DNA of 64,000 nucleotides from contig JAEVZK010000091.1 of the NCBI GenBank assembly GCA_023392285.1, positions 5,208-69,207 on the forward strand, read 5' to 3'. The position numbers and the translations under genes are program-made. How positions within the stretch are numbered: the first letter of the stretch is position 1; each line of letters begins with the position of its first letter. This stretch comes from Armatimonadota bacterium (lineage in GTDB: Bacteria > Armatimonadota > Fimbriimonadia > Fimbriimonadales > Fimbriimonadaceae). The notes under the pieces were generated by a model. It was not told where the DNA came from, did no database searches, and saw only the letters and a list, made by a program, of their open reading frames with translations. This document shows positions 14,085 through 47,262 of the stretch, piece after piece.

Positions 14085-15935
14085 ATGCCTGAATATTTAG
14101 CACCGGGCGTATTTGTCGAGGAAATTGACAGTGGAAGCAAGCCGATTGAAGGCGTTGGCGTTAACACTGCGGCTTTCATCGGCTATGCGAAGAGCGGTGA
14201 GTTTAACAAACCAACATTCATTAGTAACTGGGGCGATTTCTGCAGAATCTTCGGCGAAGACGACGACATCGTTCTTAACGCACTGAGCGACGAACTCGGT
14301 AAGAGCACGGTCGAGCTTCTTTCTGCGAAGAGGGCTTCTCGCAAGAGCTTGCTCGATTTCGCCCAGAGCGCGGTCGTGAAGGCAGCTCACGATCGAAAGG
14401 CAGCGGGAACGAAGGACAACTCGAAGTCGGGCTCTTGGTCGGACTTCGTGAAGAAGTACAACATTCCGCTTGCTTCTTCTCCGTACATGGAGGACAGCTA
14501 CCTCGCTTACGCGGTGCGCGGCTATTACGATAACGGCGGCGGACGCGCTTACATTATCCGAGTCGCTCGCGAGCAGGATCTGGCTACGTTCAAGAAGAGC
14601 GTTGCCTCGGCTCCGACTCCGGCAACTGCGTCGACGCTGTCCCTGGGCGGATACTCGTTCAAGGCTCTTGAGGCGGGCGCGGGCGGCAATGCCACCAAGG
14701 TCGAAATTCGACACGAAGGCGAAGATGGCTTCACCATGAAGATCACGGGATCGGACGGTAAGACTGAGACCTTCGGCGATAAGAAGCCGTTGACTCCCGG
14801 CAACGTCAAGAACGAAGTCAAGTCCAAGATCGTGGATTTCTCCACGGCTACCGAAACGGCCACTCGGCCCGATGCTGGCGTGTTCAATCTCGTCGGCGGT
14901 GCGGAAGCCACATCGGCGAATGCTCTTGCGAGCCTCCCGCTCAATACGGAGTTGGCCAAGGTAGACGCCGAGGACTTCGTCGGAGACGAAGCGAAGCGAA
15001 GCGGCCTGTCCGCTCTCTCGCTGATCGATGACGTCAACATGATCTCGATTCCCGACCTGATGGCAGGTTGCTGGAAGAAGGAAGCGCTCATCGGTTCCGA
15101 TGCAGTGGTCGAAGTGCTCAACGTTGATGAGAAGCGCAAGCAGCAGATCCTCGACGTGCAGTCGATGCTGATCAGCTACTGCGAGCGAATGGGCGACCGA
15201 ATGTGCATTCTCGACCCAATTCCTGGTTTGAATCCGCAGGAAATGCGCGACACCACCTTGGCCGCTCCTTTCAGCAGCGACCACGGCCAAGCGGCAATTT
15301 ACTATCCGTGGATCAAGGTCATGGACAAGCTCAATCCGCTTAGCAAGCGACAGATCTTCTGCCCGCCCAGCGGACACATTTCTGGCGTTTGGGCGCGAGT
15401 TGGCACCGAGCGCGGAGTTCACAAGGCTCCGGCGAACGAGTCGCTGATGGGCGCTGTCGCTCTCGAGCAGGACATCACCAAGGGTGAGCAGGAAATCCTG
15501 AACCCGAACGGCATCAACTGCATCCGATCCTTCCCTGGCACAGGCATCCGTGTCTGGGGTGCTCGCACCCTCGCGACGGTCGGTAATCCGAGCTGGAAGT
15601 ACGTCAACGTTCGCCGACTCTTCAATTACCTTGAGAAGTCGATGGAGCGCGGACTGCAGTGGGTGGTTTTCGAACCGAACGATCCCGATCTGTGGGGTCG
15701 CGTTCGACGCAACCTTTCGGCATTCCTTTGGATGGAGTGGAAGGAAGGCAAGCTCTTTGGCACGACCGCCGACGAGGCGTTCTATGTCAAGTGCGACGCT
15801 GAGACCAACACTCAGGAAAGCATCGATCTCGGTCGACTCTATGTCGAAATTGGAGTCAATCCGGTCAAGCCGGCAGAGTTCGTCATCGTCCGCATCGGCC
15901 AGTGGTCTGGCGGCGGCGACCGACAGGAAGCCTAA
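14085..15935 (+). CDS. Contractile tail sheath protein (Afp2-4/Pvc2-4-like)
   Basis: 616 aa. N-terminus MPEYLAPGVFVEEIDSGSKPIEGVGVNTAAFIGYA. C-terminus GVHKAPANE...INCIRSFPGTGIRVWGARTL...WKYVNVRRLFNYLEKS...FEPND..LW. These are hallmark phage/CIS sheath motifs. RBS GGAGG is upstream. Confidence 0.95.
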   Translation: MPEYLAPGVFVEEIDSGSKPIEGVGVNTAAFIGYAKSGEFNKPTFISNWGDFCRIFGEDDDIVLNALSDELGKSTVELLSAKRASRKSLLDFAQSAVVKAAHDRKAAGTKDNSKSGSWSDFVKKYNIPLASSPYMEDSYLAYAVRGYYDNGGGRAYIIRVAREQDLATFKKSVASAPTPATASTLSLGGYSFKALEAGAGGNATKVEIRHEGEDGFTMKITGSDGKTETFGDKKPLTPGNVKNEVKSKIVDFSTATETATRPDAGVFNLVGGAEATSANALASLPLNTELAKVDAEDFVGDEAKRSGLSALSLIDDVNMISIPDLMAGCWKKEALIGSDAVVEVLNVDEKRKQQILDVQSMLISYCERMGDRMCILDPIPGLNPQEMRDTTLAAPFSSDHGQAAIYYPWIKVMDKLNPLSKRQIFCPPSGHISGVWARVGTERGVHKAPANESLMGAVALEQDITKGEQEILNPNGINCIRSFPGTGIRVWGARTLATVGNPSWKYVNVRRLFNYLEKSMERGLQWVVFEPNDPDLWGRVRRNLSAFLWMEWKEGKLFGTTADEAFYVKCDAETNTQESIDLGRLYVEIGVNPVKPAEFVIVRIGQWSGGGDRQEA

Positions 15936-15944
15936 GAAGCACTA

Positions 15945-15978
15945 GCTATAGGTCTTATCAAGTGTTAAGGCCTATAGC
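15945..15978 (+). other. Intercistronic hairpin between the sheath and tube genes
   Basis: GCTATAGG (15945-15952) pairs with CCTATAGC (15971-15978) around an 18-nt loop. There is no U-tract. Confidence 0.3.
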
Positions 15979-16009
15979 GAATCAAGAGAATTACGGAGAA
16001 ATATAAGCA

Positions 16010-16444
16010 ATGGCAGAAGGCGTAGCAGCCCTTAGGTGGTACCTCGAGATCGACGGTATCACAGAAGGCGTTTTTAGAGAGGTCACCGGATTGGATTCGG
16101 AGACCGAAGTCGTCGAGCATCGAGTCACTGGAAAGAACGGCAACCTGATCGTTCATAAGGTGCCCGGCGCTCTCAAGTGGTCGAACATCGTGCTTCGGCG
16201 CGGTCTCACCGACGATCAGAAGCTCCACCAGTGGCGCGACAAGATCGAGAAGGGTCAGATCGAATCGAACCGAAAGAACGGCTCCATCACCCTGTATTCG
16301 CCAGACCAGAAGGTCGTCTGCAAGTACACGTTTAAGAATGCGTGGCCTTGCAAGTTCAAGGGTCCGGCTCTCGATGCTGCGAAGAATGAAATCGCGATCG
16401 AAGAGCTCGAGCTCGCGCACGAAGGTCTCGAGCGACAGCAGTAA
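16010..16444 (+). CDS. Tail tube protein (T4 gp19-like; Afp1/Pvc1-like)
   Basis: 144 aa. WYLEIDGITEGVFREVTGLDSETEVVEHR...VHKVPGALKWSNIVLRRGLTDD...LHQWR is the typical 'conserved phage tail region' tube pattern. Confidence 0.9.
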   Translation: MAEGVAALRWYLEIDGITEGVFREVTGLDSETEVVEHRVTGKNGNLIVHKVPGALKWSNIVLRRGLTDDQKLHQWRDKIEKGQIESNRKNGSITLYSPDQKVVCKYTFKNAWPCKFKGPALDAAKNEIAIEELELAHEGLERQQ

Positions 16445-16463
16445 GGGGAAAGAGGTGTTGAGG

Positions 16464-16516
16464 GTTGAGTGTCCAGCATTGAGGAGCCGCGGGGCTCACC
16501 AGGCTTAACACTCAAC
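16464..16516 (+). other. Nested stem-loop between the tube and chaperone-like genes
   Basis: Outer stem GTTGAGTGT (16464-16472) / ACACTCAAC (16508-16516). Inner GC stem GAGCC-gcgg-GGCTC (16484-16497). No U-tract. Confidence 0.3.
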
Positions 16517-16538
16517 GATCAATACCTCAAGGAATTAT

Positions 16539-16898
16539 ATGGCACGAAAATCACCGGGTGGACTTCAAACCGAGTTTGAATTCACCCTGCCTCGCGGTTA
16601 CGTCGATCCGGAAGGCGTGCTCCACAAAAAGGGGCGCATGCGGCTGGCAACGGCGATGGATGAGATTGCTCCTCTGCGCGATCCTCGCGTAAGGGCAAAC
16701 CAGGCTTACCTGGTGATCATCCTTCTCGCCCGAGTCATCACGCAGCTCGGAACGGTCGACGTGATCGACACCGGGGTCATCGAAAATCTCTTTTCTGCCG
16801 ACCTGGCGTTTCTTCAGGACCTTTACCGCAAGATCAACGAGCTTGATCCAGAGGCGGAGATGGAACATGAGGAACAGCCGGCGATGGTGGGGGAATAG
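16539..16898 (+). CDS. Tail-assembly-chaperone-like protein (position equivalent to P2 gpE / lambda gpG)
   Basis: 119 aa, acidic C-terminus, immediately downstream of the tube gene. It ends ...ATG GTG GGG GAA TAG, with a G5 run just before the stop. The call rests mainly on synteny. Confidence 0.5.
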   Translation: MARKSPGGLQTEFEFTLPRGYVDPEGVLHKKGRMRLATAMDEIAPLRDPRVRANQAYLVIILLARVITQLGTVDVIDTGVIENLFSADLAFLQDLYRKINELDPEAEMEHEEQPAMVGE

Positions 16899-16918
16899 CC
16901 CGCTACCCCTCAGACGCC

Positions 16919-17056
16919 TTGTATGAGGAGGTAGCGTACATTGCCTACCATTTCCACTGGTCGATGGATGACATCCTTGCGATGGAACATCGAGAGCGGC
17001 ACAAGTGGGTCGAGCAGATTAGCAAGATCAATCGTCGTTTGAGCGGCGGAAGCTAA
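16919..17056 (+). CDS. DUF6760-like small ORF, possibly expressed as a -1 frameshift extension of 16539..16898
   Basis: The frame -1 relative to the upstream gene is open from 16871 to TAA 17054-17056. It reads GGGIARYPSDALYEEVAYIAYHFHWSMDDILAMEHRERHKWVEQISKINRRLSGGS. The only canonical in-frame start is TTG 16919, which would cut off the conserved-looking YPSDAL. It is not in the ORF track. Confidence 0.5.
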   Translation: MYEEVAYIAYHFHWSMDDILAMEHRERHKWVEQISKINRRLSGGS

Positions 17057-17153
17057 GGCTCCGGCTCGACCGGGAGTTCTGTTTGGAATCGTCTTTTGTG
17101 GCAGATTTTAAGCGGAACTCCCAATAACGTTTTTAAGACTTTTAGCTCCCAAA

Positions 17154-20100
17154 ATGGGTGTTCTCGACGCTCTCGAAGATGTCGGTTCTTCAATAATCGA
17201 CACGGCATCCTCCCTACCTAGCGCAGCCGCTGGGGCAGTTGGCCTCGCCACAGATGTCGCGTCGCGAGTCGGCACCTTTGTGGGAGAGGTGACCGGCGCA
17301 ACCGGCATTCCGGATGCAGTAAGGGGCGTCGTAGGAACAGTTCGAGAAACTGTAAACCACGCGGTCGATCGAGTCACGGATGCGGCGGCAAATCCTCGCC
17401 GGACGATCGCTCGGGCCGCCGATGCGGCGCTGAACGGTGCGTCGCGCGCGCTCGCGAACACGCAATCCTTTGCCGACCGCGTGCTCAGAGGGGCTGGAAA
17501 TTTAGCCAGCGGCGTTGCGGGGGGCATTACAAGCTTCACATCCACTGTGAGCGAGGGTGTGGCGACCGGAATCTCCACCGCAGTTGGCAGGGTCGGTGAT
17601 TTGGTGCTCAAGGGGACCTCGCTGGCTCAGGGAGCGATTTCAAAGGTGGTTGGGGGTGCCGGCTCACTTGCGAATCGCGCTATCGACTTCGGCGGCGAAC
17701 TCGGCACCAGAGCCATCGGTTTGGCGTCCCAAGTGCTGCAAAATGCCGCACACGGTATCGCAGATACGGTTTCTGACGGGATCAATGGCGCGGCAGGTCT
17801 GCTTGCTCGCAAGGCCTCCCAACTTGCGACGGCGGTCAGCCGGGTCGCGAGCGGCACCGCCAACCTCGTTGGACGAGTGGCAACCATGGCGGGCGCCGGC
17901 GTTTCGCGGATTGCCGATCGGATTGGATCAGTGGTCCAACATGCGGCCGGAAATATCGCGCCATACCTGCCGGGTCCCCTTGGCAATCTGGCATTGAGGG
18001 GAGCTGGGGTCGTGGGGCGCGTCACCCAAGGCGTCAGTTCATTCGCCCTTGGCGCAAGTTCCTTCGTTCGGGAGGAATCACAGGCAGCGGCGATCTTCGT
18101 TGCGACTCGCACAGGTGAGGCGAACTCCTTTGTGCAGAATGAAATTGCTTCCATCCGAGCGGAATTGGTGCAGCAGGCGGGGAACTTGGGTGACCTAGCC
18201 GCAAACGGATTCGAACACGTGGGGGAGCGATTGACGGCAATCGTGAGAGGCAAGGTTGCCCGGCTTCACGACCGAGTCAACACGATCTCCAATCGCATTC
18301 AGGATCGAGTGGCTCGCGCGAGTGACTTGATTCGGCAAACCGTCCCGGCAGTGTCTTCAGCGATCGGCCGGGCGGCCCATACAATCGCCTCGCACCTCAG
18401 CGAGCGAGTCGGACACGGTGTCGCGCTTGTGAGAGATCGAATTGGCGAGACGATTGAAGGAGGTCGGCGACTTGTGGGCCGGGGCGCAGATGCCGCGCGT
18501 GGAGCAATGGGCTTGGGGCGACGCATCTTTGATCGCGTGCTCGATGTCGGGTCTGCGGTTACCGAACGAGTTTCTGGATTCGTGGGCGGCGTTGTCTCTG
18601 GCGTTGGAGAGGGTGTCAGAGCGGGAGTCGATCGGATCACCTCCTTCACCATGTCGGCTCGCCCGAATGATGGAGATTTGACCGGGCCCTTTATGCCGGG
18701 CGAGCCGATGGTCGAACCTGATCAGGTGGGCTCGCTGCATGGGCGGAGCAACGCTGGAGCAAGAGAGGGCATGGTGTCGGGGGGAGCGAGCCTCTTCATC
18801 AATGGGATTGACACGAGTCTTGCCGACCACTACCGAGCGGCTCAGCGGCTTGCGAACGAAATTGGCGCCCCCGTGGTGGGCGTTTACAACGCAACTGCTG
18901 GCATGGGGAGCGACCTCTTACAATGCGCGGCCGACAAGTTTTTCGACCGGTCAGGTAATCCGGCGGTGGCGACCCTCACCCGTCTGATTCGAACCTATGG
19001 AGATGCACGTCAGCCCCGTGGGGGACTCAATATTTTTGCGCATTCCCAGGGAAGCCTGATCCTATCCGAGGCTTTGCGCCAGGCGCAGACGGCAGGCGCG
19101 GATATCAGTCACAACGACGTCACCACGTTTGGAAATGCCGCGTTCACCTATCCGGCGGGACCGACCTATCACCATTACATCCACGACGACGATGCGGTGT
19201 CGATGTCGGTGGGAACAGGCAGCTACATCAGCTACTTGATGAATCAAACGACGCTTGGGCGCATGGTGTCAGGATCTGCACTCGGACCGACTGCCGACGT
19301 CCAAGCGACGACGACAACCCTGCACCACGGGGGATCGATGATCGCTCCGCACGCCGTAAACGCGCCGGATGGGCACGATTATATCGGTGACCTGGCGGCT
19401 TTTCGAGCGGCGGAACGCAGTGGCCGCGCCACCCCTGCTCGCAACTATCAGAGGACCCAGGGCGCGGCTGGCTTTGCGATTGCGAGAGGCGTCGGAACCA
19501 TGGCTGCCGACGGAATCGCGTCCGGTTACGGCCGAGTAGACCGAGCGATCACAGCCATGCCCGACTTGCCGGTTGTTGGCAATCTTGGGATTTGGAGCGC
19601 GATCAATTCACGCTTGAGAGCGATTGGGGGCGCGGCGCTTTCGGCTGGTGAATCCTACGGCAGATCACGGGACGCAAGATACTCGGGCATGTCGACGATT
19701 CAGCGAAGCGGCGACGGACCTGAACCTGAGGCAGACGCTCGCGACGTCAAATCCCGCCTCGACCAGAGTGGCTCGATCGGCTTCGCGCCGGATTCGCGCG
19801 TGAACGATCAAGTGAGTGGTGTCCTTGGCCACGACATGAGCCAGGCGCGTCTCCACATTGATCCGGCTGCTCAGTCGATGGCGCGCGACTTGGGCGCGAA
19901 AGCTTTCACGATCGGTCGAGACGTCTACTTTGGGGCGGGGCAGTACCAGCCCAGCACCCCTTCTGGTATGGCTCTGATGGCACACGAGATGACGCACGTG
20001 GTGCAGCAGTCTTCTCCTGACCAGCAGACCCGCTTCTTTACCCAGCAAGGCGGAAACGAAATGGAGCAAGAGGCTCAACGCTCTGCGGAGATGGTGCTCG

Positions 20101-23576: not shown

Positions 23577-23612
23577 TGCAAATTACAATGCAATACAATA
23601 TAGGGAGTCTAG

Positions 23613-23912
23613 ATGCCAGCTAACATCAACGTTCTGCGTTGCCGCATCCGAGTGACCAATGTGCCGCAGGGGTCGATCGAGCATCAGACGGCGAATGTCG
23701 AGCGTCCAAGCCTGCATTTTGTTCAGCCGGGTGGAAGCGAGACGTCGCATGGAGATGCGCGTCCTTCGCAGACGGCGACGGAGGACCGTAACGCGGCCAC
23801 GAATCGGGAGAGTATTTCGCCCCGAAGCGCCGATCCAAAGCAAATTGCGGATCGAGTTTATGAGTTAATGGTGAGAGAAGTGAAATTGGGAAGAGCGAGA
23901 GGCGAGAGATAA
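23613..23912 (+). CDS. Small CIS-locus protein (99 aa) sharing a C-terminal motif with the 1164-aa protein
   Basis: GGGAG RBS upstream; the stop lies 1 nt before the second tube gene. C-terminus PKQIADRVYELMVREVKLGRARGER parallels AHEINMLANEVWTLLRRKLTFEAERMGRR at the end of 24382..27876. Confidence 0.5.
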   Translation: MPANINVLRCRIRVTNVPQGSIEHQTANVERPSLHFVQPGGSETSHGDARPSQTATEDRNAATNRESISPRSADPKQIADRVYELMVREVKLGRARGER

Positions 23913-23913
23913 G

Positions 23914-24375
23914 ATGCCAGGAAAAGACGAACGACAAGGAAAAGACCATCATCTCGGACTGCGGTTCTGGGTGCAAATCGAGGGCGTCGAGATCGCCGGA
24001 TTCAGTGAAGTTTCGGGGCTCTCGATTGAGACGGAGACGTTTGAGTACGCAGAGGGCGGACTGAACACATTTACTCATAAGCTGCCAGTTAGAGCGAAGT
24101 ACACGAACGTAACCCTGAAGCGAGGTATGGACCGGGGCCACGACCTGTTCACGTGGTACAAGAACTCGCTGGAAGGGCGGCTGCAGAGGAAGAACATCTC
24201 GATCATGGTCTACGGGCCGGAGGGCGGGGAACCGATGTATCAGTGGGACCTTATGGGAGCATTTCCGGTGAAATGGGTCGGTCCCGACATGCGGACCGAG
24301 GCCGGCTCCTCTGCGATCGAAACTCTTGAATTCGCCCACCACGGCCTGATCAATTCCACGCATCGATCTTCGTAA
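23914..24375 (+). CDS. Second tail tube-family protein (Afp5/Pvc5-like tube or tube-initiator paralog)
   Basis: 153 aa. LGLRFWVQIEGVEIAGFSEVSGLSIETETFEYAEGG...HKLPVRAKYTNVTLKRGM...LFTWY shows the same family pattern as 16010..16444. Confidence 0.85.
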   Translation: MPGKDERQGKDHHLGLRFWVQIEGVEIAGFSEVSGLSIETETFEYAEGGLNTFTHKLPVRAKYTNVTLKRGMDRGHDLFTWYKNSLEGRLQRKNISIMVYGPEGGEPMYQWDLMGAFPVKWVGPDMRTEAGSSAIETLEFAHHGLINSTHRSS

Positions 24376-24381
24376 ACAACC

Positions 24382-27876: not shown

Positions 27877-27894
27877 ATTTAGGAACAGACAACC

Positions 27895-28545: not shown

Positions 28546-28549
28546 CTCA

Positions 28550-30403: not shown

Positions 30404-30708
30404 TGGGAAAACCAGCAGCAAGACTTGGAGATAGCTGTGCCCATGGAGGCACGATTGTGGCAGGTTGTCCGACCGTGCTCATTGGCGGACAACCCGCCGC
30501 TCGCTTGGGCGACATGCACGTTTGTCCGATGTCGACGCCAGCGACGCCACCGATTCCGCACGTAGGAGGGCCGATCTTGCCGCCTTGCTCACCAACGGTG
30601 ATCATTGGCGGGATGCCTGCGGCTAGAGTTGGTGATATGGCGCTGTGTCCTCCTAGTCCGCCGGATTCGATCGTAGCAGGCTGTCCAACCGTGCTTATTG
30701 GCCCATAA
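30403..30708 (+). CDS. PAAR-domain spike-tip protein (Afp10-like)
   Basis: 101 aa with three PAAR(L/V)GD repeats. The start overlaps the vgrG stop (TAATG). Confidence 0.9.
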   Translation: MGKPAARLGDSCAHGGTIVAGCPTVLIGGQPAARLGDMHVCPMSTPATPPIPHVGGPILPPCSPTVIIGGMPAARVGDMALCPPSPPDSIVAGCPTVLIGP

Positions 30709-31196: not shown

Positions 31197-31199
31197 TCC

Positions 31200-33329: not shown

Positions 33330-33333
33330 TTCC

Positions 33334-34458: not shown

Positions 34459-34461
34459 ACC

Positions 34462-35622: not shown

Positions 35623-35631
35623 GGAAGATTA

Positions 35632-40418: not shown

Positions 40419-40455
40419 TGTAACGCCTGCAAATTGCGGGCGTCTGGAAACTAGC

Positions 40456-42192
40456 ATGAAGGGGAACATGAGCAGAGAAGTTATGTCGCATCGATTGCGA
40501 TTGTGGATGGTTGCAGCATTGCTCTCCCTGTCCCTCTCGGCTCTGGCCGACAAGGCGGTTGTAGTCGGCGTGCAAGAGTATGCGCCACTCGTTGCGGCCA
40601 GTACGCTTCGGGGGTGCTTGAATGACGCGAACGCAGTCGCAGACGTGCTGCGCAAGAACAAGTTCGACGTCATTCAGCTATCGAACGAAAAGGCAACTCG
40701 CCAGGGGATCCTCGACACCCTCGCCGGATTGATTAAAACCTCCAAGGCGAGTGAACGCTTTGTGTTTTATTTTGCGGGACATGGCCGAAGAACGCCTCAT
40801 CCTGCCCTGATGCCTCACGATGCGACCAGTGATGGGAACGACATCACCACCGACGACCTGAATGCGGTGATCTCAAAGATTCCGGCGAGGAGCCGAACGG
40901 TCATTCTGGATGCTTGTTTCTCAGGCGGAATGGCGGCGGGTGAGATGGCGAGAGGCATCAAGGACGATGGGTTGACCGCGCGTTTTTATGAAGACGCCAC
41001 GGCTCAGGCGAGAAGTCTCGATTTCGGGCCAGCGAAAGCCCCGGTCAACAACCAGGACACCAATGCGAAGCTGGAGAATGGCTCGAACATCTGTTATTAC
41101 ACGGCCTGCACGAGCAACGAACAAGCGTTGGAAGGCTCCTTCGATGGTCAGCGGCACGGCCTGTTCACCTACGCCCTGCTCAGTAATCTGAAAGATGATT
41201 CGGAGCCTTGGGGTGAAGTGCATAACGGGGTCAAGACCCAAATGCAGGGCAAGCTGGAGAATACGGGACGCCAACAAAACCCGACGATTTCCAAGAACTA
41301 CCTAAACGCCCACGCGTTGGATAATGACATCGCGAAGCCGGTAGAACCGAAGCCAACCAAGACACTCATCGACGTCTGGAATTTAGAGAATCCTGATCCG
41401 AAGAAGATCTCACTAGAGCTCTCTCCGAATTCGAATGTTTACGAAGCGGGACGCAATATTGCGATGACCGCGACGGTTGGCCAAGAGGGCTACCTCGTCA
41501 TCTTGGGTGAAGTCGATGGCCACTACTACCAGTTCTTTCCCGCTGGCAAATTCGATCCCGACGACGCTCACGTCAAGGCGGGCAAAATTCCCTGGCCATC
41601 GCCGGGAAACGTTCTGTTTTTCGACAGCTTCGGGGCCAATCAGGTGAAGGCGATCCTCTTTTCCGATACTCAGAAGGCAGCTAAGCTGCTGGATGCGATG
41701 CGAGAGATGAACGGTGCCGCCGACATCAGCAACAAGGATCTGATTCTCACCCGATCTCTCAATGAGCCGGAATTCACCTCGCGCCTCAGCGTGGCGGTTT
41801 CGGACAATCTGGTCGGCGGGAGCCGGTTTAAAGACTTAAACGGCTTGATCAAAAAGGTGGCTGCCCAAGACGCGCCGCTGACAAAGCGGATATGGGAGTT
41901 GATGGGGCGGGTTGCGACCAGTAAGCCGCATCAGGATTGGATGGCGAACACGGATTTCAATCAGGAAATCACCTTAAAGTCACGTGGAGTTTTCGTGGCG
42001 CTCCTTAACCGTGTCCTGCAATCATTCCCGCTTTACGAGGAAGATGTGTTCCAGGGGATCAAACTCGACAAGAAGACTTCCGATCTGTTAAAGAAGAATC
42101 CAAAGGGTGACGATCTGATACGCCTGAATAGGCAACTTCTCGTCGCTGCTTTTCCTGCCGAAGTAAATCCCGACGAGGCGAATTCCAAATGA
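40456..42192 (+). CDS. Secreted caspase-family (peptidase C14) protease with a DUF4384-like domain
   Basis: 578 aa. Signal peptide LWMVAALLSLSLSALA. Catalytic dyad contexts FYFAGHGRR (His codon 40780-40782) and VILDACFSGG (Cys codon 40915-40917). DUF4384-like YEAGRNIAMTATVGQEGYLVILGEVDGHYYQFFP. Confidence 0.8.
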   Translation: MKGNMSREVMSHRLRLWMVAALLSLSLSALADKAVVVGVQEYAPLVAASTLRGCLNDANAVADVLRKNKFDVIQLSNEKATRQGILDTLAGLIKTSKASERFVFYFAGHGRRTPHPALMPHDATSDGNDITTDDLNAVISKIPARSRTVILDACFSGGMAAGEMARGIKDDGLTARFYEDATAQARSLDFGPAKAPVNNQDTNAKLENGSNICYYTACTSNEQALEGSFDGQRHGLFTYALLSNLKDDSEPWGEVHNGVKTQMQGKLENTGRQQNPTISKNYLNAHALDNDIAKPVEPKPTKTLIDVWNLENPDPKKISLELSPNSNVYEAGRNIAMTATVGQEGYLVILGEVDGHYYQFFPAGKFDPDDAHVKAGKIPWPSPGNVLFFDSFGANQVKAILFSDTQKAAKLLDAMREMNGAADISNKDLILTRSLNEPEFTSRLSVAVSDNLVGGSRFKDLNGLIKKVAAQDAPLTKRIWELMGRVATSKPHQDWMANTDFNQEITLKSRGVFVALLNRVLQSFPLYEEDVFQGIKLDKKTSDLLKKNPKGDDLIRLNRQLLVAAFPAEVNPDEANSK

Positions 42193-44315
42193 AGCGCTTG
42201 TTCTCTGCCCTTCTTGTGGCGCTTTCGGCCATCGCGACGGCGCAACAGGATCTGCCGAATCTCGTCGTCGATATGAATGATCGGCCCGCCGAACTCAAGC
42301 CGGTTATGCTCGAGTTGAATGAATATCTGGTGCCGTTGCGCCCGGCCGTCGAGTTGCTGACCGGAGGCAAAGGTGCCCTCGGAATCGACGGAAAGACTTA
42401 CACCATTAGCATCGATAACAAAGTGCTCGTCCGCATCCCTCAAGAAGGTGGGGGAAAGGAAGCCCTGATTTATTCCGAAACCGATTCGAATCCAGTGAGG
42501 CGGCTCTCCATGGAAGATTTCCCGCACGAGGTGATTACCAAGGAGCGGGGTCCAACGGCGATGGTCGACCTGGATTTGCTTGCCGCCTGCTTGGGAGTCA
42601 CCGTCGACATCGATGGCAAGCGGCTTTCGCTTTACACGACGGATTACTGGTGCGGAAAAATCGGCATCAGCGCGGACAAGGTTGAAAATCGGCTGCAGAA
42701 AGGAATCGCGCTCGTACCCGACTTTGGAGTGTCGCCACCAGCGAAAACATTGCTCTTCTGGGTCAGGCCACCCGTCACGTCGTACGTTCAGGCGTTTCGG
42801 TTGAATGACAACGCGCCGGAGCCCATGCTTGGCATCAATGCGCTGGATGACGAGGTCGATATCCTGACTCCGGGGAACCGTCCGAAGATGCGCCAAGCCG
42901 ACCAGCAATCGCCGATCAGAGCGGAAACCTACAACTATGGGTCGGAAGTGGGCAAGGTGGCCACCTACGTCGCGGTGGTCCTGAAGAAGGATGTTGGAAT
43001 GGCAAGCCCGATCGAAGCGATCAATTCAGGGGCCGCAGGCGACGATTGGGCGGTGATCGGAATCCGTCAGCGCGTCGGACGGATGCCGATCCTTTTTGAA
43101 AATCGAGAAGTCTTGCCAGGGGAAGACATCGGTGCCTTTGCGACTCGAAACAAGACGACGCCCTCGGTGATTAAATCCGTGAACGGCCTGCGGACTGGTG
43201 AGAAATTACGTCCCAAATCAAAGTTGGCGGTCATTGTTGGCTTGGATGAAAACGCGATTAGGCTGATGCAAGCCGCACCGTTCAAGATCACTGGACTTTA
43301 TGAGGTTCAGCCGGGCGAAACTCTCAAGGACCTCGCTCACTCCTGGGGTGTGAGCGAAGATGAAATATTAGCAGCGAATACTACTATTCCTCCAGGAGGC
43401 GAACCTGAACCTGGCGATCTGATCAACGCGATCGCAAAGGATGCTCCCTCCAATCCAGGCAATCCCAACCCGCAGCCCGTTAACCCTTCGATCGCCAAGA
43501 ACGAATCGGTCGCCTTTATGGGCACTGCGGTTGCCACTGCGCCACTCCAGCTTCGGGAGACATCAGTAGCTGGCTCTACGGTCGTTGGCTCGGCGCCCAA
43601 GAATACATTCGTCGAGCTCGTCGGCTACATGCCGGCTCAGCAGATGTATCGAGTGCGAATCGACGGCGGAGTGATTGGTTATGTTCCTGCCAGTTCCCTG
43701 CGTGTTCGCGCTGGAAGCGGGGGCGCAACGGTCGTTGCGGCGAACATCAATCCCTCCAATAATCCGGTTGCGAACGAAGCTCTCAAGTATTTGGGAACCC
43801 CCTATGTTTGGGGAGGCAACGGCCTGACCACCGGCATCGACTGCTCGCACTTCGTCGCTCAGGTGTATACAAGGATAGGCTGGCCCGCTCCGCCCGCTCC
43901 GGTCACGACTCAGGAGACCATCGGCGACATCGTTCATTACAAGCCGGGACAAGCGCGTCGAGCGGGTCGAACGATCATCCTCCCCAATGCGGTGGTCGCA
44001 CCGCGTGCTTCACCCGACCTGAGAACCTTGCAGCCGGGCGACCGAATTATCTTTCAACGTGGCAACACGGATGCGTCAGGTACGCGCCACACGGCTATTT
44101 ATATCGGACGAGTCCCACCTGCCTGGCAGAAAAAATTCGGCGATATTCCGTGGGCATTCGTTCATGCCTCCTCATCCCGAGGCGTCACCGTCAGCAGCCT
44201 CACTCAAAAATATTATTGGAATATCTATAAATTTAGCTGCCGCAGCGCTCACCGCAAGACCGTTGCATCCACTCCTGACGAGGCCATTGCATCCGCGATG
44301 TTGGGTGGCAAATGA
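42189..44315 (+). CDS. Secreted multidomain peptidoglycan hydrolase: amine-oxidase-N-like stalk, LysM, SH3b, NlpC/P60 (C40) peptidase
   Basis: 708 aa. Signal peptide MKRLFSALLVALSAIATAQQ. LysM YEVQPGETLKDLAHSWGVSEDEILAAN. SH3b-like TFVELVGYMPAQQMYRVRIDGGVIGYVPASSL. NlpC/P60 YLGTPYVWGGNGLTTGIDCSHFVAQVY (Cys codon 43842-43844), HTAIYIG and FVHAS. The start overlaps the caspase stop (ATGA). Confidence 0.85.
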   Translation: MKRLFSALLVALSAIATAQQDLPNLVVDMNDRPAELKPVMLELNEYLVPLRPAVELLTGGKGALGIDGKTYTISIDNKVLVRIPQEGGGKEALIYSETDSNPVRRLSMEDFPHEVITKERGPTAMVDLDLLAACLGVTVDIDGKRLSLYTTDYWCGKIGISADKVENRLQKGIALVPDFGVSPPAKTLLFWVRPPVTSYVQAFRLNDNAPEPMLGINALDDEVDILTPGNRPKMRQADQQSPIRAETYNYGSEVGKVATYVAVVLKKDVGMASPIEAINSGAAGDDWAVIGIRQRVGRMPILFENREVLPGEDIGAFATRNKTTPSVIKSVNGLRTGEKLRPKSKLAVIVGLDENAIRLMQAAPFKITGLYEVQPGETLKDLAHSWGVSEDEILAANTTIPPGGEPEPGDLINAIAKDAPSNPGNPNPQPVNPSIAKNESVAFMGTAVATAPLQLRETSVAGSTVVGSAPKNTFVELVGYMPAQQMYRVRIDGGVIGYVPASSLRVRAGSGGATVVAANINPSNNPVANEALKYLGTPYVWGGNGLTTGIDCSHFVAQVYTRIGWPAPPAPVTTQETIGDIVHYKPGQARRAGRTIILPNAVVAPRASPDLRTLQPGDRIIFQRGNTDASGTRHTAIYIGRVPPAWQKKFGDIPWAFVHASSSRGVTVSSLTQKYYWNIYKFSCRSAHRKTVASTPDEAIASAMLGGK

Positions 44316-46030
44316 GACGGCTGTTCCTACTCGCGGCCTTGGCGTTATCGGCGTGGGCTGGAGCGGAGCGGTATGCGATCTTGGTCGCGGTCGACAGCTA
44401 TCCTATCATCAAACCGCCGCAGCGGCAGCTCTCGGGCTCCGCCTATGACCTTCGCCTAATGGGCAAGATGATGGAGTTCTATAACTTCCAGGTGACCCAG
44501 CTTGCTCGCGGTGATGCGACGCGAGGAAAGATCATCGAGCAGATGTCTCTGCTGCAGCCTAAAATCAAGGCTGGAGATGAGGTGGTGTTTTACTTCTCGG
44601 GACGCGGGTCCGTCGCTCCACCAGTCGACGCTCCGAAGGCGAAGGTAAATTTCGAGCCGACGATCGTGCCCTATGACGGAAAGGAAACGGTCGTCGATTA
44701 CGACATCCGCATGAGCCGCCTCGAAGATTGGGCGAAGTCGATCGCCGAGCATGGCGGGAATGTCACCTTCATCATCGACGCGAGCTTCCAGTCGATTGCA
44801 CGAGACGACGTTGGCCGTCCATATAACCCGACCCCGCGCACACTTACCCGCAAGTCGACCTCCGACGGAGCGGTCCGCGACAAGCCTTACATGGGCCCTG
44901 GAATCTATCTCGGAGCTGTTCCAACCGGCGGCAGTGCGTACGAGTACCTCGTGAACACAAGCAACAACACTTGGGCAGGAGCCTTCACCGACATGCTCGT
45001 GAACGAGGTGATCAGCAAACTGCGAAACGGAGAATCTCCCACCTACTCGTCCGCCATGCGGGAGATTGAAGCGTATTTCAAAGATAAAGTCCGCCAAGAC
45101 TACATGCCGGGTTTGGCACCCTACCCCTTCACGAAAACTTTGGTGGAAGAGGCGCAGACCTATGACCGCCCCTTGTTCGGTGGCCTCAACCCGCAGACCG
45201 TGCCGCCGCCTCAGCAAGCCGAAATTCAGCATATGGACGAGGATCGGAAGGCCCGTGAGCGGAAGCTCCGCATCGGGCTAAGCTTTCCGGCGGTCCGCGA
45301 CAGGGCGTCCACCCGTGGAGACGGGTTGGAGGATGGCCGTGATCCGAAGCTGGTAGAAGACTTCACCAAGAGCGTGAGCGCGAATCTTCCTTATGCCGAG
45401 GTCGTTCCGGTTGGCGCGCCGGTGGACACCGTGGTCGCTTTTGTCAAGCAGGCCAATGGATCGTTCGAGGCTCGCATATTTGGTGACGAGGTCGATCAGA
45501 AGCGCAATCTTCGCTTTCCGGGAGCGAACGTCGAGCAAATGATGGCGGCTGGACTACGCGATCAGCTGGAACGGCAGGCACTTACGGTGAAGCTCTTCAA
45601 GCTGATCGATGAGGGCAAAGGAACCCTCGACGGTGTAGATCTTAGCGTGGAAAAAGACACCTATGCGCCATCGGATCGCTTTGCGCTTCACTTTAAGACC
45701 GGTGCCCCATCCCTCCTTTACGTCTTCGATCGAGACGATGCGGATGGCATTACTCAACTCACCTTCCCAACGATGGGCGCGACCGAGAATCTGCTTCCTG
45801 CGGGAGGCCGCGATTTCACGCCCATGATTGCGGAAGGCAGCCCCACCGGGAAAATGATGGTCAAGGGTCTCTTCGTCGAACCGTCCCCCGACCTTCCCTC
45901 CATCGAGGGGACCGATGAAAAGACGTTCAACGAAAATCTGCTCAAACACCTTCGAGCGCTAGTGCCCTTGATCGAGGGGAACAAGCTGAAATGGTTTGCC
46001 AAGGAAATTAGCCTCACGATCAAGCCGTGA
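44312..46030 (+). CDS. Secreted caspase-fold paralog with a substituted catalytic dyad (pseudo-caspase) and a DUF4384-like domain
   Basis: 572 aa. Signal peptide MRRLFLLAALALSAWAGA. Same architecture as 40456..42192, but His->Arg (FYFSGRGSV, codon 44603-44605) and Cys->Ser (FIIDASFQS, codon 44783-44785). The start overlaps the upstream stop. Confidence 0.7.
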   Translation: MRRLFLLAALALSAWAGAERYAILVAVDSYPIIKPPQRQLSGSAYDLRLMGKMMEFYNFQVTQLARGDATRGKIIEQMSLLQPKIKAGDEVVFYFSGRGSVAPPVDAPKAKVNFEPTIVPYDGKETVVDYDIRMSRLEDWAKSIAEHGGNVTFIIDASFQSIARDDVGRPYNPTPRTLTRKSTSDGAVRDKPYMGPGIYLGAVPTGGSAYEYLVNTSNNTWAGAFTDMLVNEVISKLRNGESPTYSSAMREIEAYFKDKVRQDYMPGLAPYPFTKTLVEEAQTYDRPLFGGLNPQTVPPPQQAEIQHMDEDRKARERKLRIGLSFPAVRDRASTRGDGLEDGRDPKLVEDFTKSVSANLPYAEVVPVGAPVDTVVAFVKQANGSFEARIFGDEVDQKRNLRFPGANVEQMMAAGLRDQLERQALTVKLFKLIDEGKGTLDGVDLSVEKDTYAPSDRFALHFKTGAPSLLYVFDRDDADGITQLTFPTMGATENLLPAGGRDFTPMIAEGSPTGKMMVKGLFVEPSPDLPSIEGTDEKTFNENLLKHLRALVPLIEGNKLKWFAKEISLTIKP

Positions 46031-46059
46031 TGCAATAAACTACGAGATAGAGGATATTC

Positions 46060-47205
46060 ATGCTAAAGAGGATTTTATTGGCGGGCATTCTGGCGGCTTT
46101 AACGCTGCCCGTATTCGCCGCGCCACAGCAGGACAACAGTGCCAAGTACAAGTCGGCAATCGCATGGCTCCATAAGCTGGAGCCGCAATTTTCCGCAGAG
46201 ACCAAGGAAATGGTTCCGTCGATCGAAGCGATCTTGGAACGGTATTACATGCATCCGGATGAGCTTCGGGCGAGCGAAAAGTCAATTGCAGAAGCTTTTA
46301 TCGCCACGATGCCTGAGGAAGGGGATGGCTTAAGCGGTCGAGGCTCAGCCGAAGATCGCATGAAGGAATTTGAGGGCTTGCTCGGCTCTTCTGCTCCGAA
46401 GCCAGCACCCGCAAAGGCGCCGGTAAAGAAGCCTGCGAAGAAGACTACGGCAAAGAAGCCGCCTGTGAAGAAGCCAACGCCGCCGGTGGTTCGCCGCCCA
46501 AGTACGGCCAAGTTCAAAATTCCAGGCATCACGGTACGGCCAAGCTTCAGTGCGGTGGAACGAGCCGCTCCTGGCGGCAGCCGCATCGGCGCGGTGATGG
46601 TGTCGATCGATGGCCGCAAGAAAACCGTGATCGAAATTTTGTCTCAGTCGGGTGGACTTTCTCTTCAGAAGCGAGCTCAAATAGTTGCCAATCGAATGAC
46701 CGCTCTGTCGAAGAAAAATCCGCTTTGGTGGACCACGGTTAAGGGTGGCACCGCCAAAGGGGAGGCGGTCGTCCTTGCCAGCGGTGCCCCAAGCGGATTT
46801 CTGGTGACGGCGGACAAGCAGTTTGCAAGTGAATGCGGAATGTCGCCTTCGAAGCTGGCATCCACGCTCGCGATGAAGATCCGGAATACTTTTGACCCTG
46901 ACCGCGGGGACGACTTTGGCGGGCGAGATACGACTCCGGAGGATCTGCGGCAAGCCGCGATCGACTTGCGTCAAGAAGGCGACGAACTCTATTCGACCTC
47001 TCCTGCCCAGGCGGAATCCAAATATCTGGCGGCAATTCAGAACGATTCGTCGTATCACCTCTCTTATTTGAGGCTTGCGGACATGTACAAGTCGCAGGGC
47101 AACACGGAGAAAGCCAAGGCCATCCTAAACCAAGGTATGGCGGTTGCGGCGATTACCGGCGAACAGCGCCAGGAACTCGAAGCGAAGCTAAAGAGTTTAG
47201 GCTAA
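46060..47205 (+). CDS. Secreted protein with a Lys/Pro-rich linker and TPR-like C-terminus
   Basis: 381 aa. Signal peptide ILLAGILAALTLPVFAAP. Linker KPAPAKAPVKKPAKKTTAKKPPVKKPTPP. C-terminal TPR-like YLAAIQNDSSYHLSYLRLADMYKSQGNTEKAKAILNQG. Confidence 0.6.
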   Translation: MLKRILLAGILAALTLPVFAAPQQDNSAKYKSAIAWLHKLEPQFSAETKEMVPSIEAILERYYMHPDELRASEKSIAEAFIATMPEEGDGLSGRGSAEDRMKEFEGLLGSSAPKPAPAKAPVKKPAKKTTAKKPPVKKPTPPVVRRPSTAKFKIPGITVRPSFSAVERAAPGGSRIGAVMVSIDGRKKTVIEILSQSGGLSLQKRAQIVANRMTALSKKNPLWWTTVKGGTAKGEAVVLASGAPSGFLVTADKQFASECGMSPSKLASTLAMKIRNTFDPDRGDDFGGRDTTPEDLRQAAIDLRQEGDELYSTSPAQAESKYLAAIQNDSSYHLSYLRLADMYKSQGNTEKAKAILNQGMAVAAITGEQRQELEAKLKSLG

Positions 47206-47229
47206 CAACCCAAGCGCGTTTTGACATTT

Positions 47230-47262
47230 AGCCCCGTTCCTGCAACGGGGCTATCCTTTTAA
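47230..47262 (+). terminator. Rho-independent terminator closing the long plus-strand gene array
   Basis: Perfect 9-bp stem AGCCCCGTT (47230-47238) / AACGGGGCT (47244-47252), 5-nt loop, followed by ATCCTTTTAATT. Confidence 0.65.

Follow-up and report, generated by a model that had tools for sequence, protein, structure and literature searches.

A contractile injection system locus of an uncultured Fimbriimonadaceae bacterium with possible links to the cell envelope

The contractile injection system (CIS) locus described here comes from an uncultured Fimbriimonadaceae bacterium of the phylum Armatimonadota and lies within a 64-kb stretch of DNA (the window). It comprises 21 co-oriented plus-strand genes (14085-47205; Table 1), not the 25 counted in the initial annotation. 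The tight gene spacing noted there is borne out, with gaps mostly of -4 to 37 nt and four of 74-97 nt, as is the clean operon end: the closing terminator is strong and is the top-ranked plus-strand match across 33-48.5 kb. The dnaA gene (51057-52439, minus strand) is 3.9 kb away, so that the proximity stressed earlier is real, but we found no evidence that it matters, and the 5' flank differs in a relative of 89% sheath identity.

Table 1. Genes of the CIS locus and its terminator
Feature	Length	Coordinates	Strand	Evidence
Contractile sheath	616 aa	14085..15935	+	Pfam Phage_sheath_1 and 1C, E 1e-17
Inner tube protein 1	144 aa	16010..16444	+	Pfam Phage_T4_gp19, E 3e-39
Tail assembly chaperone-like protein	119 aa	16539..16898	+	phrog_508 tail assembly chaperone, E 1.8e-6
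DUF6760 small protein	45-aa ORF	16919..17056	+	Pfam DUF6760, E 7e-16; weak Phage_P2_GpE match
Tme-like giant protein	2140 aa	17154..23576	+	Pfam eCIS_core at aa 881-954, E 8e-26
Small protein	99 aa	23613..23912	+	Tape-measure-type C-terminal motif at end
Tube protein 2 / tube initiator	153 aa	23914..24375	+	Pfam Phage_T4_gp19, E 2e-39
Low-complexity protein, second tape-measure-like candidate	1164 aa	24382..27876	+	Conserved C-terminus
Tube-baseplate adaptor with LysM	216 aa	27895..28545	+	Pfam CIS_tube, E 6e-31, and LysM; best solved 9gtp_P
VgrG-like spike	617 aa	28550..30403	+	Pfam Phage_base_V and Phage_GPD; best solved 9gtr_q, E 2e-55
PAAR spike tip	101 aa	30403..30708	+	Pfam PAAR_motif, E 9e-29
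gp25-like sheath initiator	134 aa	30792..31196	+	Pfam GPW_gp25, E 2e-25; best solved 9gtp_V
Baseplate J-like wedge protein	709 aa	31200..33329	+	Pfam Baseplate_J; best solved 9gtp_1K, E 4e-115
Tail_P2_I / Cis12-like wedge protein	386 aa	33298..34458	+	Pfam Tail_P2_I, E 1e-11; solved match 9gtp_E
Fibre-position adaptor	386 aa	34462..35622	+	TssK / receptor-binding-protein shoulder N-domain and Pfam DUF4159 head
Single-pass membrane protein 1	842 aa	35632..38160	+	TM helix 583-601 (hydropathy)
Single-pass membrane protein 2	752 aa	38160..40418	+	TM helix 318-336; Pfam TIG
Exported orthocaspase	578 aa	40456..42192	+	Pfam Peptidase_C14, E 1.5e-26; signal peptide
Exported LysM-SH3-NlpC/P60 peptidoglycan peptidase	708 aa	42189..44315	+	Pfam NLPC_P60, LysM, SH3_3
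Exported pseudo-caspase	572 aa	44312..46030	+	Pfam Peptidase_C14, E 1e-11
Exported TPR protein	381 aa	46060..47205	+	Signal peptide; weak TPR_8 match
Intrinsic terminator closing the operon		47229..47253	+	10-bp stem, 6 GC pairs, T-rich tail

Pfam confirms every member of the contractile-tail core claimed previously: sheath, two tube proteins, LysM hub, VgrG, PAAR, gp25, Baseplate J and gpI-like wedge. The PAAR gene start overlaps the VgrG stop, and for the Tail_P2_I gene ATG 33334 is a possible start instead of 33298. For the sheath, J, VgrG, gp25, LysM-tube and Cis12 proteins the best solved relatives are chains of the S. coelicolor CIS (8bky, 9gtp, 9gtr); the sheath reaches E 2e-130 against 8bky/9gtp, and is 85-89% identical to proteins of Fimbriimonadaceae metagenome-assembled genomes. 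Tube protein 2 matches chain 9gtp_a (E 7e-15) of the S. coelicolor baseplate entry, named there just "Phage tail protein". Going by such best matches to solved structures, we place the locus in a family that spans the phylum and is akin to the cytoplasmic type IId CIS of Streptomyces.

The chaperone-like gene of the earlier reading is supported by its PHROG match, and its product is 76-84% identical in distant relatives. The DUF6760 protein encoded next is conserved in every relative examined and, judging from its sequence, is the second half of a chaperone pair like E/E' of phage P2. The P2 tape-measure gene follows the chaperone pair, a position taken here by the 2140-aa gene. Its product runs from a tape-measure-like N-terminus (aa 13-502 matched by five tape-measure PHROGs, best E 1.7e-9) through an alpha/beta-hydrolase-like segment, with sub-threshold Abhydrolase_8 and DUF900 matches around an AHSQGS motif, and a DUF4157/eCIS_core zincin domain (HEMTH) to a Gly-rich hydrophobic stretch, a linker rich in Pro and, at the end, a variable C-terminus; similarity to relatives is confined to patches. 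A single giant payload between the chaperone and second tube genes had been called unusual, which its tape-measure position and matches contradict, as does its resemblance to published DUF4157 giant effectors of the Tme type (PMC11126660, PMC8213781). On these sequence features it is likely a tape-measure-related CIS cargo. Two further proteins share a C-terminal motif: the 99-aa protein, whose tail in Capsulimonas is fused onto the end of the eCIS_core protein, and the 1164-aa protein, which gave no family match in Pfam, NCBIfam or PHROG profile searches and has the C-terminus NxLAxEVWxLLRRxLxxEAERMGR in common with orthologs of 597-1460 aa.

No fibre had been recognised at first, which is half wrong: the DUF4159 fusion stands at the fibre position and carries a fibre or TssK-type baseplate-anchor domain. 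Its AlphaFold model (pLDDT 89.6) has an N-domain that Foldseek matches to TssK, the phi812 baseplate and three chains of similar length in the Anabaena tCIS 7b5h, probably the Cis19 crown trimer, and that hits phage tail-fibre and receptor-binding proteins (RBPs) in a viral library; the head matches 4i66, with a ThuA-like or GATase-like fold. There is also a weak NCBIfam CIS13_fam match. The gene follows Tail_P2_I in all related loci with that DNA (about 38), and the head is 50-90% identical among the 120 matches listed of 164 homologs. From the modelled fold, we consider the fusion a fibre-position protein with an N-domain of the TssK/RBP shoulder type; in keeping with this, a published fibre catalogue likens eBAP3 and Tail_P2_I to TssK and TssG (PMC12923769). 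The short receptor-binding fibre of a released extracellular CIS (eCIS) looks the same, however, with a globular head on an anchor of the shoulder type.

The next two genes encode the mid-chain single-TM proteins reported earlier, each with one mid-chain hydrophobic helix, and every family locus of sufficient length to show them has orthologs. Membrane protein 1 is predicted to have Ig-like domains and a Pro/Glu linker before the helix and about 240 aa outside; the positive-inside flank in five orthologs (3-4 K/R vs 0-2) clearly predicts a cytoplasmic N-terminus. Membrane protein 2 was listed as 775 aa but has 752, starting at ATG 38160 in a TAATG overlap with the preceding stop. In five aligned orthologs its layout is a conserved 315-aa N-domain, the helix, a TIG domain, a Gly/Thr/Ser linker and a helical-repeat C-terminus; about 80 representatives of the N-domain were matched among 1.84 billion proteins. 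Its flank charges are ambiguous for topology, and its structure model, with a pLDDT of 45, is too poor for use.

That the operon continues into an exported caspase / NlpC-P60 / pseudo-caspase module is upheld by Pfam, signal peptides and dyad motifs. The orthocaspase dyad is intact by sequence (GHG and DACFSG), while that of the pseudo-caspase is replaced (SGRGS and DASFQS). The NlpC/P60 protein has a signal peptide and a DCSHF catalytic Cys motif, and its gene overlaps the orthocaspase gene (ATGA). The same series, with or without the TPR gene, follows membrane protein 2 in related loci L006/L020, L018, L019, L024, L026 and L055; TPR homologs adjoin the CIS in L008, L024, L028 and L029. Neighbours of the caspase, CHAT, TPR or WD40 type are also found at L007, L008, L028, L029, L053 and the distant L047, and those checked all have signal peptides or lipoboxes. 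Once, in L055, a TPR-CHAT gene lies inside the operon, between VgrG and gp25. Such neighbours are recurrent, not universal: downstream of L025, L030, L031 and L032 lie housekeeping genes, L035 (unscanned) gave no match to the module, and in Capsulimonas the cap and ATPase genes occupy its downstream place.

The reported lack of cap and ATPase genes extends to all 64 kb: neither was found by Pfam among neighbouring ORFs or by tblastn with the relatives' proteins, and the best hit of a cap-family HMM in the six-frame translation had E 1.8. As a peculiarity of the locus it stands only in part. Most relatives have no ATPase within the DNA examined, and the sequences indicate that lacking a nearby ATPase is common in the family, whereas lacking the cap is confined to the closest relatives: sister lineages retain an Afp16-type cap, and a cap gene lies beside the sheath gene in a relative of 75% sheath identity, with none there in the 89% relative. 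Most likely the cap is encoded elsewhere in this genome. Since the cargo would be a tape-measure-like protein assembled within the tube, the system can probably do without a loading ATPase of the Afp15 type. The DUF4159 fusion and the two membrane proteins had been taken to replace the ATPase and cap, but Capsulimonas corticalis has all five together; since the membrane proteins also accompany cap and ATPase in relatives, they are not substitutes.

The membrane-associated or lysis-coupled mode suggested at the outset is the best supported. The core proteins have their nearest kin in the cytoplasmic S. coelicolor CIS. Firing of that system requires CisA, a membrane protein with a single pass whose gene comes right behind those for the baseplate (PMC12237407); our two predicted membrane proteins resemble CisA in architecture and gene position. 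Our tentative preference is for a CIS docked at the inner membrane and coupled to the envelope. The particle would assemble in the cytoplasm, and its wedge-borne DUF4159 adaptors might attach to the Ig-like cytoplasmic domains of both membrane proteins and so hold the baseplate at the inner membrane. The periplasmic parts (TIG domain, helical repeats) could be linked with the four exported proteins (caspase, pseudo-caspase, TPR, NlpC/P60); these would sense or carry out envelope damage, and firing would therefore be coupled to cell-wall breakdown or lysis, comparable to the stress-induced death seen with the Streptomyces and Anabaena systems. We did not find this set of partners (TssK-like adaptor, two membrane proteins, exported caspase-type proteases) in the published literature.

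Two other uses of an intact machine seem unlikely to a similar degree. (i) The docked particle could act like a type VI secretion system (T6SS), fired on contact outward into neighbours, with NlpC/P60 making a local opening in the peptidoglycan and the Tme-like protein as toxin. To our knowledge, neither an Afp16-type cap nor an Afp15-type ATPase occurs in T6SSs, and in that respect the window is alike. The TssK-like adaptor fold, the two membrane proteins with periplasmic domains, the exported peptidase within the operon and the VgrG-PAAR spike would also fit, as would the published likening of eBAP3 and Tail_P2_I baseplates to TssK and TssG (PMC12923769). Against this, no scanned protein has a family match to TssJ/L/M, TssA or ClpV, nothing resembling an immunity gene is evident next to the giant protein, sister lineages keep their cap, and the nearest relatives with solved structures are self-directed systems of the cytoplasm (PMC12237407, PMC12998442). 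(ii) In a classical released eCIS, the DUF4159 fusion would be a short receptor-binding fibre, lysis by NlpC/P60 and protease would free the particle, and the membrane proteins would have a part in release or regulation instead of docking. The eCIS core set (PMC8213781) is for the most part present, the N-domain matches phage shoulder domains and eBAP3/4 fibre anchors, the head could bind a ligand, and the exported hydrolase could be the lysin. The head's conservation is, however, unlike that of fast-evolving receptor binders, and membrane proteins of 750-840 aa with conserved cytoplasmic domains are unlike holins. Neither DUF4159 nor Armatimonadota appears in the text and part of the supplements of the catalogue of 3445 fibres (PMC12923769). 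The cytoplasmic kinship tells against release as well, and the extended form of the Chloroflexota relatives is reported to be unstable on purification (PMC12998442).

Decay of the locus into a non-functional remnant after cap and ATPase loss would accord with their absence and the rearranged 5' flank, but is very improbable: all 21 ORFs are unbroken, including those of 2140 and 1164 aa, translational coupling is kept, and dN/dS is 0.07-0.21 against the 89% relative, itself capless upstream of the sheath, values that indicate retained function. A prophage tail module can be practically dismissed despite the sheath, tube, chaperone, tape-measure and hub order generally known from P2, in agreement with the initial annotation, as none of the window ORFs scanned is a capsid, terminase, portal or integrase gene, the locus carries the CIS markers DUF4157/eCIS_core, PAAR and CIS_tube, and by Pfam of neighbouring ORFs the flanks are housekeeping genes, here and in relatives.

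The locus consists of 21 tightly packed plus-strand genes rather than the 25 counted in the initial annotation. Most intergenic distances fall between -4 and 37 nt and four measure 74-97 nt; genes overlap start to stop at two ATGA junctions and one TAATG at 38160. The named core parts were all confirmed by Pfam: sheath, two gp19-type tube paralogs, CIS_tube+LysM, VgrG, PAAR, gp25, Baseplate_J and Tail_P2_I. From the eCIS core Pfam set as defined by Geller et al. 2021 (PMC8213781), we found Phage_sheath_1, Phage_T4_gp19, Phage_GPD, PAAR, GPW_gp25 and Baseplate_J, together with eCIS_core/DUF4157, which lies within a 2140-aa protein (E 8e-26, aa 881-954) and bears an HExxH motif. The small gene after tube 1 matches the phage tail-assembly-chaperone family phrog_508, and the 45-aa ORF after the chaperone-like gene belongs to DUF6760 and weakly matches P2 GpE; from these matches the two look like an E/E'-type chaperone pair. 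The terminator proposed to close the operon is the strongest plus-strand hit of the region, and none comparable lies between the gene for membrane protein 2 and the caspase gene. A prophage tail is ruled out by the housekeeping flanks (L25, SdhA, PdxS, DedA, ABC1 kinase, DnaA and similar) and by the absence of head and integrase genes, as the flanking ORFs scanned in the window include no capsid, portal, terminase, integrase or head gene adjoining the locus. No support was found for the proximity to dnaA being meaningful: 5' flanks vary among relatives and the window has no GC-skew inflection.

Features of the contractile injection system (CIS) locus, its surroundings and related loci
Sequence	Coordinates	Strand	Feature
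Window	11699-13786		695-aa ORF directly 5' of sheath
Window	14085-47205	+	CIS locus
Window	14097-15422	-	antisense ORF
Window	17154-23576	+	2140-aa giant protein
Window	19665-21299	-	antisense ORF
Window	23613-23912	+	99-aa protein
Window	23626-24558	-	antisense ORF
Window	24382-27876	+	1164-aa low-complexity protein
Window	34462-35622	+	DUF4159 fusion (adaptor)
Window	35632-38160	+	membrane protein 1
Window	38160-40418	+	membrane protein 2
Window	40456-42192	+	C14 orthocaspase
Window	42189-44315	+	NlpC/P60 protein
Window	44312-46030	+	pseudo-caspase
Window	46060-47205	+	TPR protein
Window	47229-47253	+	terminator
Window	56498-59984		four co-oriented genes
L005 (Capsulimonas)	777-965		99-aa-type tail as C-terminus of eCIS_core protein
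L005 (Capsulimonas)	16415-20223		cap/ATPase/eCIS_core unit, 3' of cluster
L047	8231-15338		region with distant DUF4159 fusion after Tail_P2_I
L050	9995-14203		region with distant DUF4159 fusion after Tail_P2_I
L053 (Chthonomonadaceae)	9381-14844		cap/ATPase/eCIS_core unit, 5' of cluster
L055 (GCA_964576205.1)	2989-6051		TPR-CHAT protein

Sheath homologs labelled Fimbriimonadaceae occur at 85-89% identity, and the CIS family continues at 52-77% sheath identity into Chthonomonadaceae and Capsulimonadaceae. An ENA metagenome contig matches the window, and complete MAGs with this type of locus include GCA_035545155.1, GCA_030835105.1 and GCA_964576205.1. The top solved match for six core proteins (sheath, baseplate J, VgrG, gp25, LysM-tube and Cis12) is CIS-Sc, the cytoplasmic type IId CIS of Streptomyces coelicolor (8bky, 9gtp, 9gtr; entries identified in PMC12237407), with E of 2e-130 for sheath and 4e-115 for baseplate J and with scores far above those for the thylakoid-anchored CIS of Anabaena (tCIS), PVC, AFP and AlgoCIS. 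As judged by best solved matches, the best-supported assignment of the tail is IId-related. Type IId members in Chloroflexota and Deinococcota are likewise cytoplasmic (PMC12998442). CIS-Sc and the window both have a Tail_P2_I-type wedge, no long receptor-binding fibre, and a gene for a single-pass membrane protein directly 3' of the baseplate genes, the usual fibre place. They differ in that the CIS-Sc particle has a Cis16 cap, its cluster genes being numbered cis1-cis16, whereas the window lacks both cap and ATPase; neither a DUF4159 adaptor nor a caspase module figures in the published descriptions of CIS-Sc consulted. Two related loci are peculiar: (i) L011 (JBPBQB010000086.1), labelled as a Janthinobacterium lividum MAG, carries a CIS of Armatimonadota type whose sheath and cap are 58% and 65% identical, respectively, to those of family members, and the contig is probably mis-binned; (ii) in L007 (GCA_049317025.1, Fimbriimonas sp.) the baseplate half, from gp25 to the membrane proteins, begins right after an opposite-strand helicase gene, so that the cluster appears split from its sheath/tube half in that genome.

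The claim that no recognisable fibre is present held only in part. The DUF4159 fusion gene lies directly 3' of Tail_P2_I in every related locus covering that DNA (about 38), and the predicted model of its product (from 74 sequences, pLDDT 89.6) has an N-domain similar in fold to TssK, to baseplate proteins of phi812 and to three chains of similar length from the Anabaena tCIS baseplate (7b5h), which are probably the Cis19 crown trimer. From this fold and this position, the locus does have a fibre-position protein; its head is the conserved globular DUF4159 and not a variable receptor binder. The TssK match covers the N-domain only (E 4e-4, TM-score 0.26), and the same fold is found in phage receptor-binding proteins; in the viral structure library the N-domain matches shoulder domains of tail fibres and receptor-binding proteins, and the NCBIfam CIS13_fam match is weak. 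In the model the C-domain resembles 4i66, a crystal structure of DUF4159, as well as ThuA-like/flavodoxin-like folds. There are 164 homologs at E <=1e-5, the best 120 of which are nearly all 380-400 aa, the named ones almost all being from Armatimonadota. By description, the protein resembles the eBAP3/eBAP4 anchors (PMC12923769) in its ~190-aa N-terminal anchor encoded right after Tail_P2_I and in its TssK-like, tCIS-crown-like fold; that 2026 fibre catalogue itself draws the TssK/TssG analogy for such baseplates (PMC12923769), and its text and the supplements searched name neither DUF4159 nor Armatimonadota hosts. Five His residues (H31, H34, H37, H41, H46) are invariant in 74 homologs within aa 24-46, one predicted N-terminal helix, and they could form a metal-binding ladder on a trimer axis. 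Other CIS lineages (L047, L049, L050) have distant DUF4159 fusions, 31-34% identical, that likewise come after Tail_P2_I, and in these the two Armatimonadota-type membrane proteins are absent; L050 has Ig-like/zinc-ribbon and TIG proteins alongside the fusion.

Both membrane proteins are kept in all family loci of sufficient length, and their conserved cores are 33-45% identical to those in Capsulimonas and other members. In membrane protein 1 an Ig-like N-domain is followed by a Pro/Glu linker of 200-300 aa, a highly conserved juxtamembrane region and a single TM helix, which is clearly positive-inside on its N-terminal flank; ~240 aa lie beyond the helix. Membrane protein 2 has a conserved 315-aa N-domain (~80 representatives matched among 1.84 billion proteins), a single TM helix, a TIG domain and, after a Gly/Thr/Ser linker, helical repeats; its single-sequence structure prediction had a pLDDT of 45, too low for use. 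A profile-profile comparison of the two for paralogy gave a probability of 8%. In a distant DUF4159-bearing locus the equivalent genes encode CARDB/FixG_C Ig-like and TIG domains. A published counterpart would be CisA of Streptomyces, encoded at the usual fibre position and required for firing (PMC12237407), to which the membrane proteins appear analogous in gene position, single-pass design and cytoplasmic N-terminus. CisA differs in having 468 aa, an unstructured N-terminus and a substrate-binding-like periplasmic domain, whereas the window proteins have 842 and 752 aa and structured cytoplasmic Ig-like domains.

The best-supported reading of these parts is a cytoplasmic, membrane-docked, envelope-linked tail; the parts themselves are observed, and we infer every contact between them. 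The IId-related tail would be assembled in the cytoplasm, its wedges would carry the TssK-fold/DUF4159 adaptors, these would dock on the two inner-membrane proteins, and the periplasmic sides of the latter would communicate with the exported protease, TPR and peptidoglycan-hydrolase proteins. Firing may be self-directed and lysis-coupled, as in Streptomyces and Anabaena. Like tCIS (PMC8894136), the system would be an intracellular CIS tethered to a membrane via modified fibre-position and baseplate proteins and associated with lysis, which in tCIS is stress-induced. In tCIS, by contrast, the fibre-like Cis13 itself bears the TM helix, whereas the window encodes a soluble adaptor and has its TM helices in other proteins; tCIS also has a cap, and its sheath is only distantly related to that of the window (160 bits versus 439 bits). 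Firing may instead be outward and contact-dependent, as in T6SS, which the locus resembles in the TssK-like N-terminal shoulder fold predicted for the adaptor (5y0e, 5mwn, 6n38), in the adjoining TssG-like Tail_P2_I and in the logic of linking baseplate to inner membrane. It differs from T6SS in its adaptor head, which is DUF4159 and not the TssK C-domain, and in its core proteins of eCIS/IId type; no sequence homologs of TssJ/L/M, TssA or ClpV were found (for TssJ/L/M and ClpV, by Pfam and NCBIfam of the locus proteins). The locus may also encode a released eCIS of the classical kind that has a short fibre and an atypical lysis cassette. The window shares with Afp/PVC the core set of PMC8213781 (sheath, tube, LysM adaptor, VgrG, PAAR, gp25, baseplate J, DUF4157), and differs from them in lacking the DUF4255/Pvc16_N cap, AAA ATPase and adenovirus-type fibre, in its Tail_P2_I-type wedge partner, and in having cargo at the tape-measure position rather than at the 3' end.

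The continuation of the operon into a caspase/NlpC-P60/pseudo-caspase module is borne out by motifs and signal peptides. The His-Cys dyad is intact in the first C14 protein and both of its residues are gone from the second, the NlpC/P60 protein keeps its Cys motif, and all four downstream proteins have signal peptides predicting export. Membrane protein 2 is followed by this caspase-NlpC-pseudocaspase(-TPR) string also in L006/L020, L018, L019, L024, L026 and L055. In L055 a 1020-aa exported TPR-CHAT protease with intact His and Cys motifs is also encoded between VgrG and gp25, roughly the place of PAAR in the window. Further arrangements are a WD40-C14 fusion (L007), TPR, C14 and WD40 genes on the opposite strand (L053), C14 and TPR (L029), TPR homologs (L008, L028) and, next door to the distant DUF4159-bearing CIS of L047, TPR-CHAT and DUF4384 lipoproteins. 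All caspase/CHAT/TPR/WD40 neighbours checked have predicted export. The association is not universal, L025, L030, L031 and L032 having housekeeping neighbours; L035, a locus outside the scan, gave no module match, and a scan of metagenome contigs with the NlpC/P60 protein alone gave none. A limited literature check turned up no paper that connects CIS loci to genes of the caspase family, nor is there such a link in the text of Geller et al. (PMC8213781). This exported caspase-family pairing, which includes one TPR-CHAT gene inside a core operon, is the main interest of the family, joining two machineries each associated with regulated cell death.

The giant protein was initially annotated as an unusual single payload between the chaperone and the second tube gene; its position stands, while the pattern is a published one. 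It is the largest ORF of the cluster and lies upstream of the baseplate genes, directly after the chaperone pair; in phage P2, gpT follows E/E'. Five tape-measure PHROGs match aa 13-502 (best E 1.7e-9), and the protein occupies the tape-measure position. Other features are a segment surrounding an AHSQGS motif that matches alpha/beta-hydrolases below threshold, a Gly-rich hydrophobic stretch and a linker rich in Pro. Similarity to relatives, one of which has a glucosaminidase domain, is in patches only, and the C-termini of the giant proteins differ between relatives. Its aa 1600-2140 have no Pfam, NCBIfam or PDB match, and PDB sequence search with this and the other unassigned locus proteins gave only trivial TIG, Pro-rich and low-complexity matches. 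Multidomain DUF4157 eCIS toxins with very long linkers have been described (PMC8213781), as has Tme, a tape-measure-related effector of Streptomyces davawensis (PMC11126660), whose sheath clade is distant from CIS-Sc (PMC11126660). Tme shares with the window protein its rank as largest ORF upstream of the baseplate genes, DUF4157, a distant homology to tape-measure proteins, hydrophobic segments and long regions of disorder. It differs in that its DUF4157 is N-terminal rather than mid-chain and its C-terminus is an EndA-like nuclease, none being detected in the window protein; moreover, in the window a tube gene and the disordered 1164-aa protein intervene between giant protein and hub. The 99-aa and 1164-aa proteins share a C-terminal motif, ~[IV]A[DN][RE]V[YW]xL[ML][KR]xE...R.GR, and in Capsulimonas a 99-aa-type tail forms the C-terminus of an eCIS_core protein. 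We read these C-termini, from their sequence, as being of tape-measure type, and the shared motif may signal the docking of tape-measure-like cargo at the hub or in the lumen.

The reported lack of cap and ATPase was upheld throughout the window: there is no Pfam hit for DUF4255 (Pvc16_N), and the sole AAA hit is DnaA. The six-frame window gave at best E 1.8 with tblastn of four relatives' caps and a six-cap HMM, and E 0.5 with tblastn of the Capsulimonas CIS ATPase, of Afp15 type. Relatives carry the cap in two forms: (i) a Pvc16_N+CarboxypepD_reg protein encoded directly 5' of the sheath (L003, L009-L012, L053, L054), and (ii) a movable three-gene unit of short cap, AAA ATPase and small eCIS_core protein, found on either side of the cluster. 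The Chthonomonadaceae locus has two Pvc16_N genes. The membrane proteins, first taken as stand-ins for cap and ATPase, do not replace them, because Capsulimonas carries both sets together. A genome-contig scan with narrow patterns from a 3-cap alignment gave 7 loci, and those it added have the cap upstream of the sheath. The DNA around the adaptor gene gave neither a cap nor an ATPase hit in any of 36 metagenome loci, and a 1.5-Mb contig has the cap upstream and no ATPase within 10 kb of either cluster end; ATPase absence near the locus is thus common in the family. The Capsulimonas ATPase has at least 120 homologs at 58-65% identity in many phyla; among the matches listed, no hit is named Fimbriimonadaceae, and contigs that also carry a sheath match have only sheaths at <=61% identity, which is suggestive. 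Afp15/Pvc15-type ATPases have been associated with moving payload into the tube (bioRxiv 10.1101/2023.08.15.553202); a tape-measure-built cargo might not need one.

The relative at 75% sheath identity has both a cap beside the sheath and the caspase module. The window and its relative at 89% lack a cap beside the sheath, and their 5' flanks differ from each other, which suggests that a breakpoint lies immediately 5' of the sheath, and the locus looks rearranged at this boundary. Our default assumption is that the cap would have been relocated elsewhere in the genome. The dN/dS between window and 89% relative is 0.07-0.21, so the system is under constraint. The 695-aa ORF directly 5' of the sheath occupies the place where relatives carry the cap gene. 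It was rejected as a divergent cap or ATPase, having no family match (Pfam, NCBIfam, PHROG or PDB) and being absent from the 89% relative. The family offers a natural series on the need for these parts: cap and ATPase (Capsulimonas, Chthonomonadaceae), cap only, and neither in the locus.

The CIS class is known, as are several of the features flagged in the initial annotation; the partner set of adaptor, membrane proteins and caspases, with a cap-less and ATPase-less locus, was not found in the CIS literature searched. A stronger proposal, which we hold to be rather unlikely, is that the TssK-fold DUF4159 adaptor, two single-pass inner-membrane proteins, periplasmic caspase-family proteases, TPR/WD40 and NlpC/P60 proteins form in Armatimonadota an envelope-spanning docking apparatus for an eCIS/IId-type tail, T6SS-independent in origin, that gates firing or lysis; in the lineage of the window it would do so while the locus, and possibly the whole genome, lacks cap and ATPase genes. 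The literature searched describes two membrane ties of contractile systems other than T6SS, the TM-bearing fibre of Anabaena tCIS (PMC8894136) and CisA of Streptomyces (PMC12237407); if real, this would make three, and it would be the first one set in an envelope of Gram-negative type with periplasmic partners that can be identified. Among the hosts, the named species Capsulimonas corticalis has a complete genome record of 7.6 Mb. It has been cultured, and as a cultured member would open the family to experiment.

Elsewhere in the window, four co-oriented close-packed genes (193, 188, 617 and 161 aa) have no Pfam match, and long antisense ORFs of up to 544 aa lie inside plus-strand genes of the locus; the latter most likely arise as artefacts from a GC content of 58-63% and are not genes.
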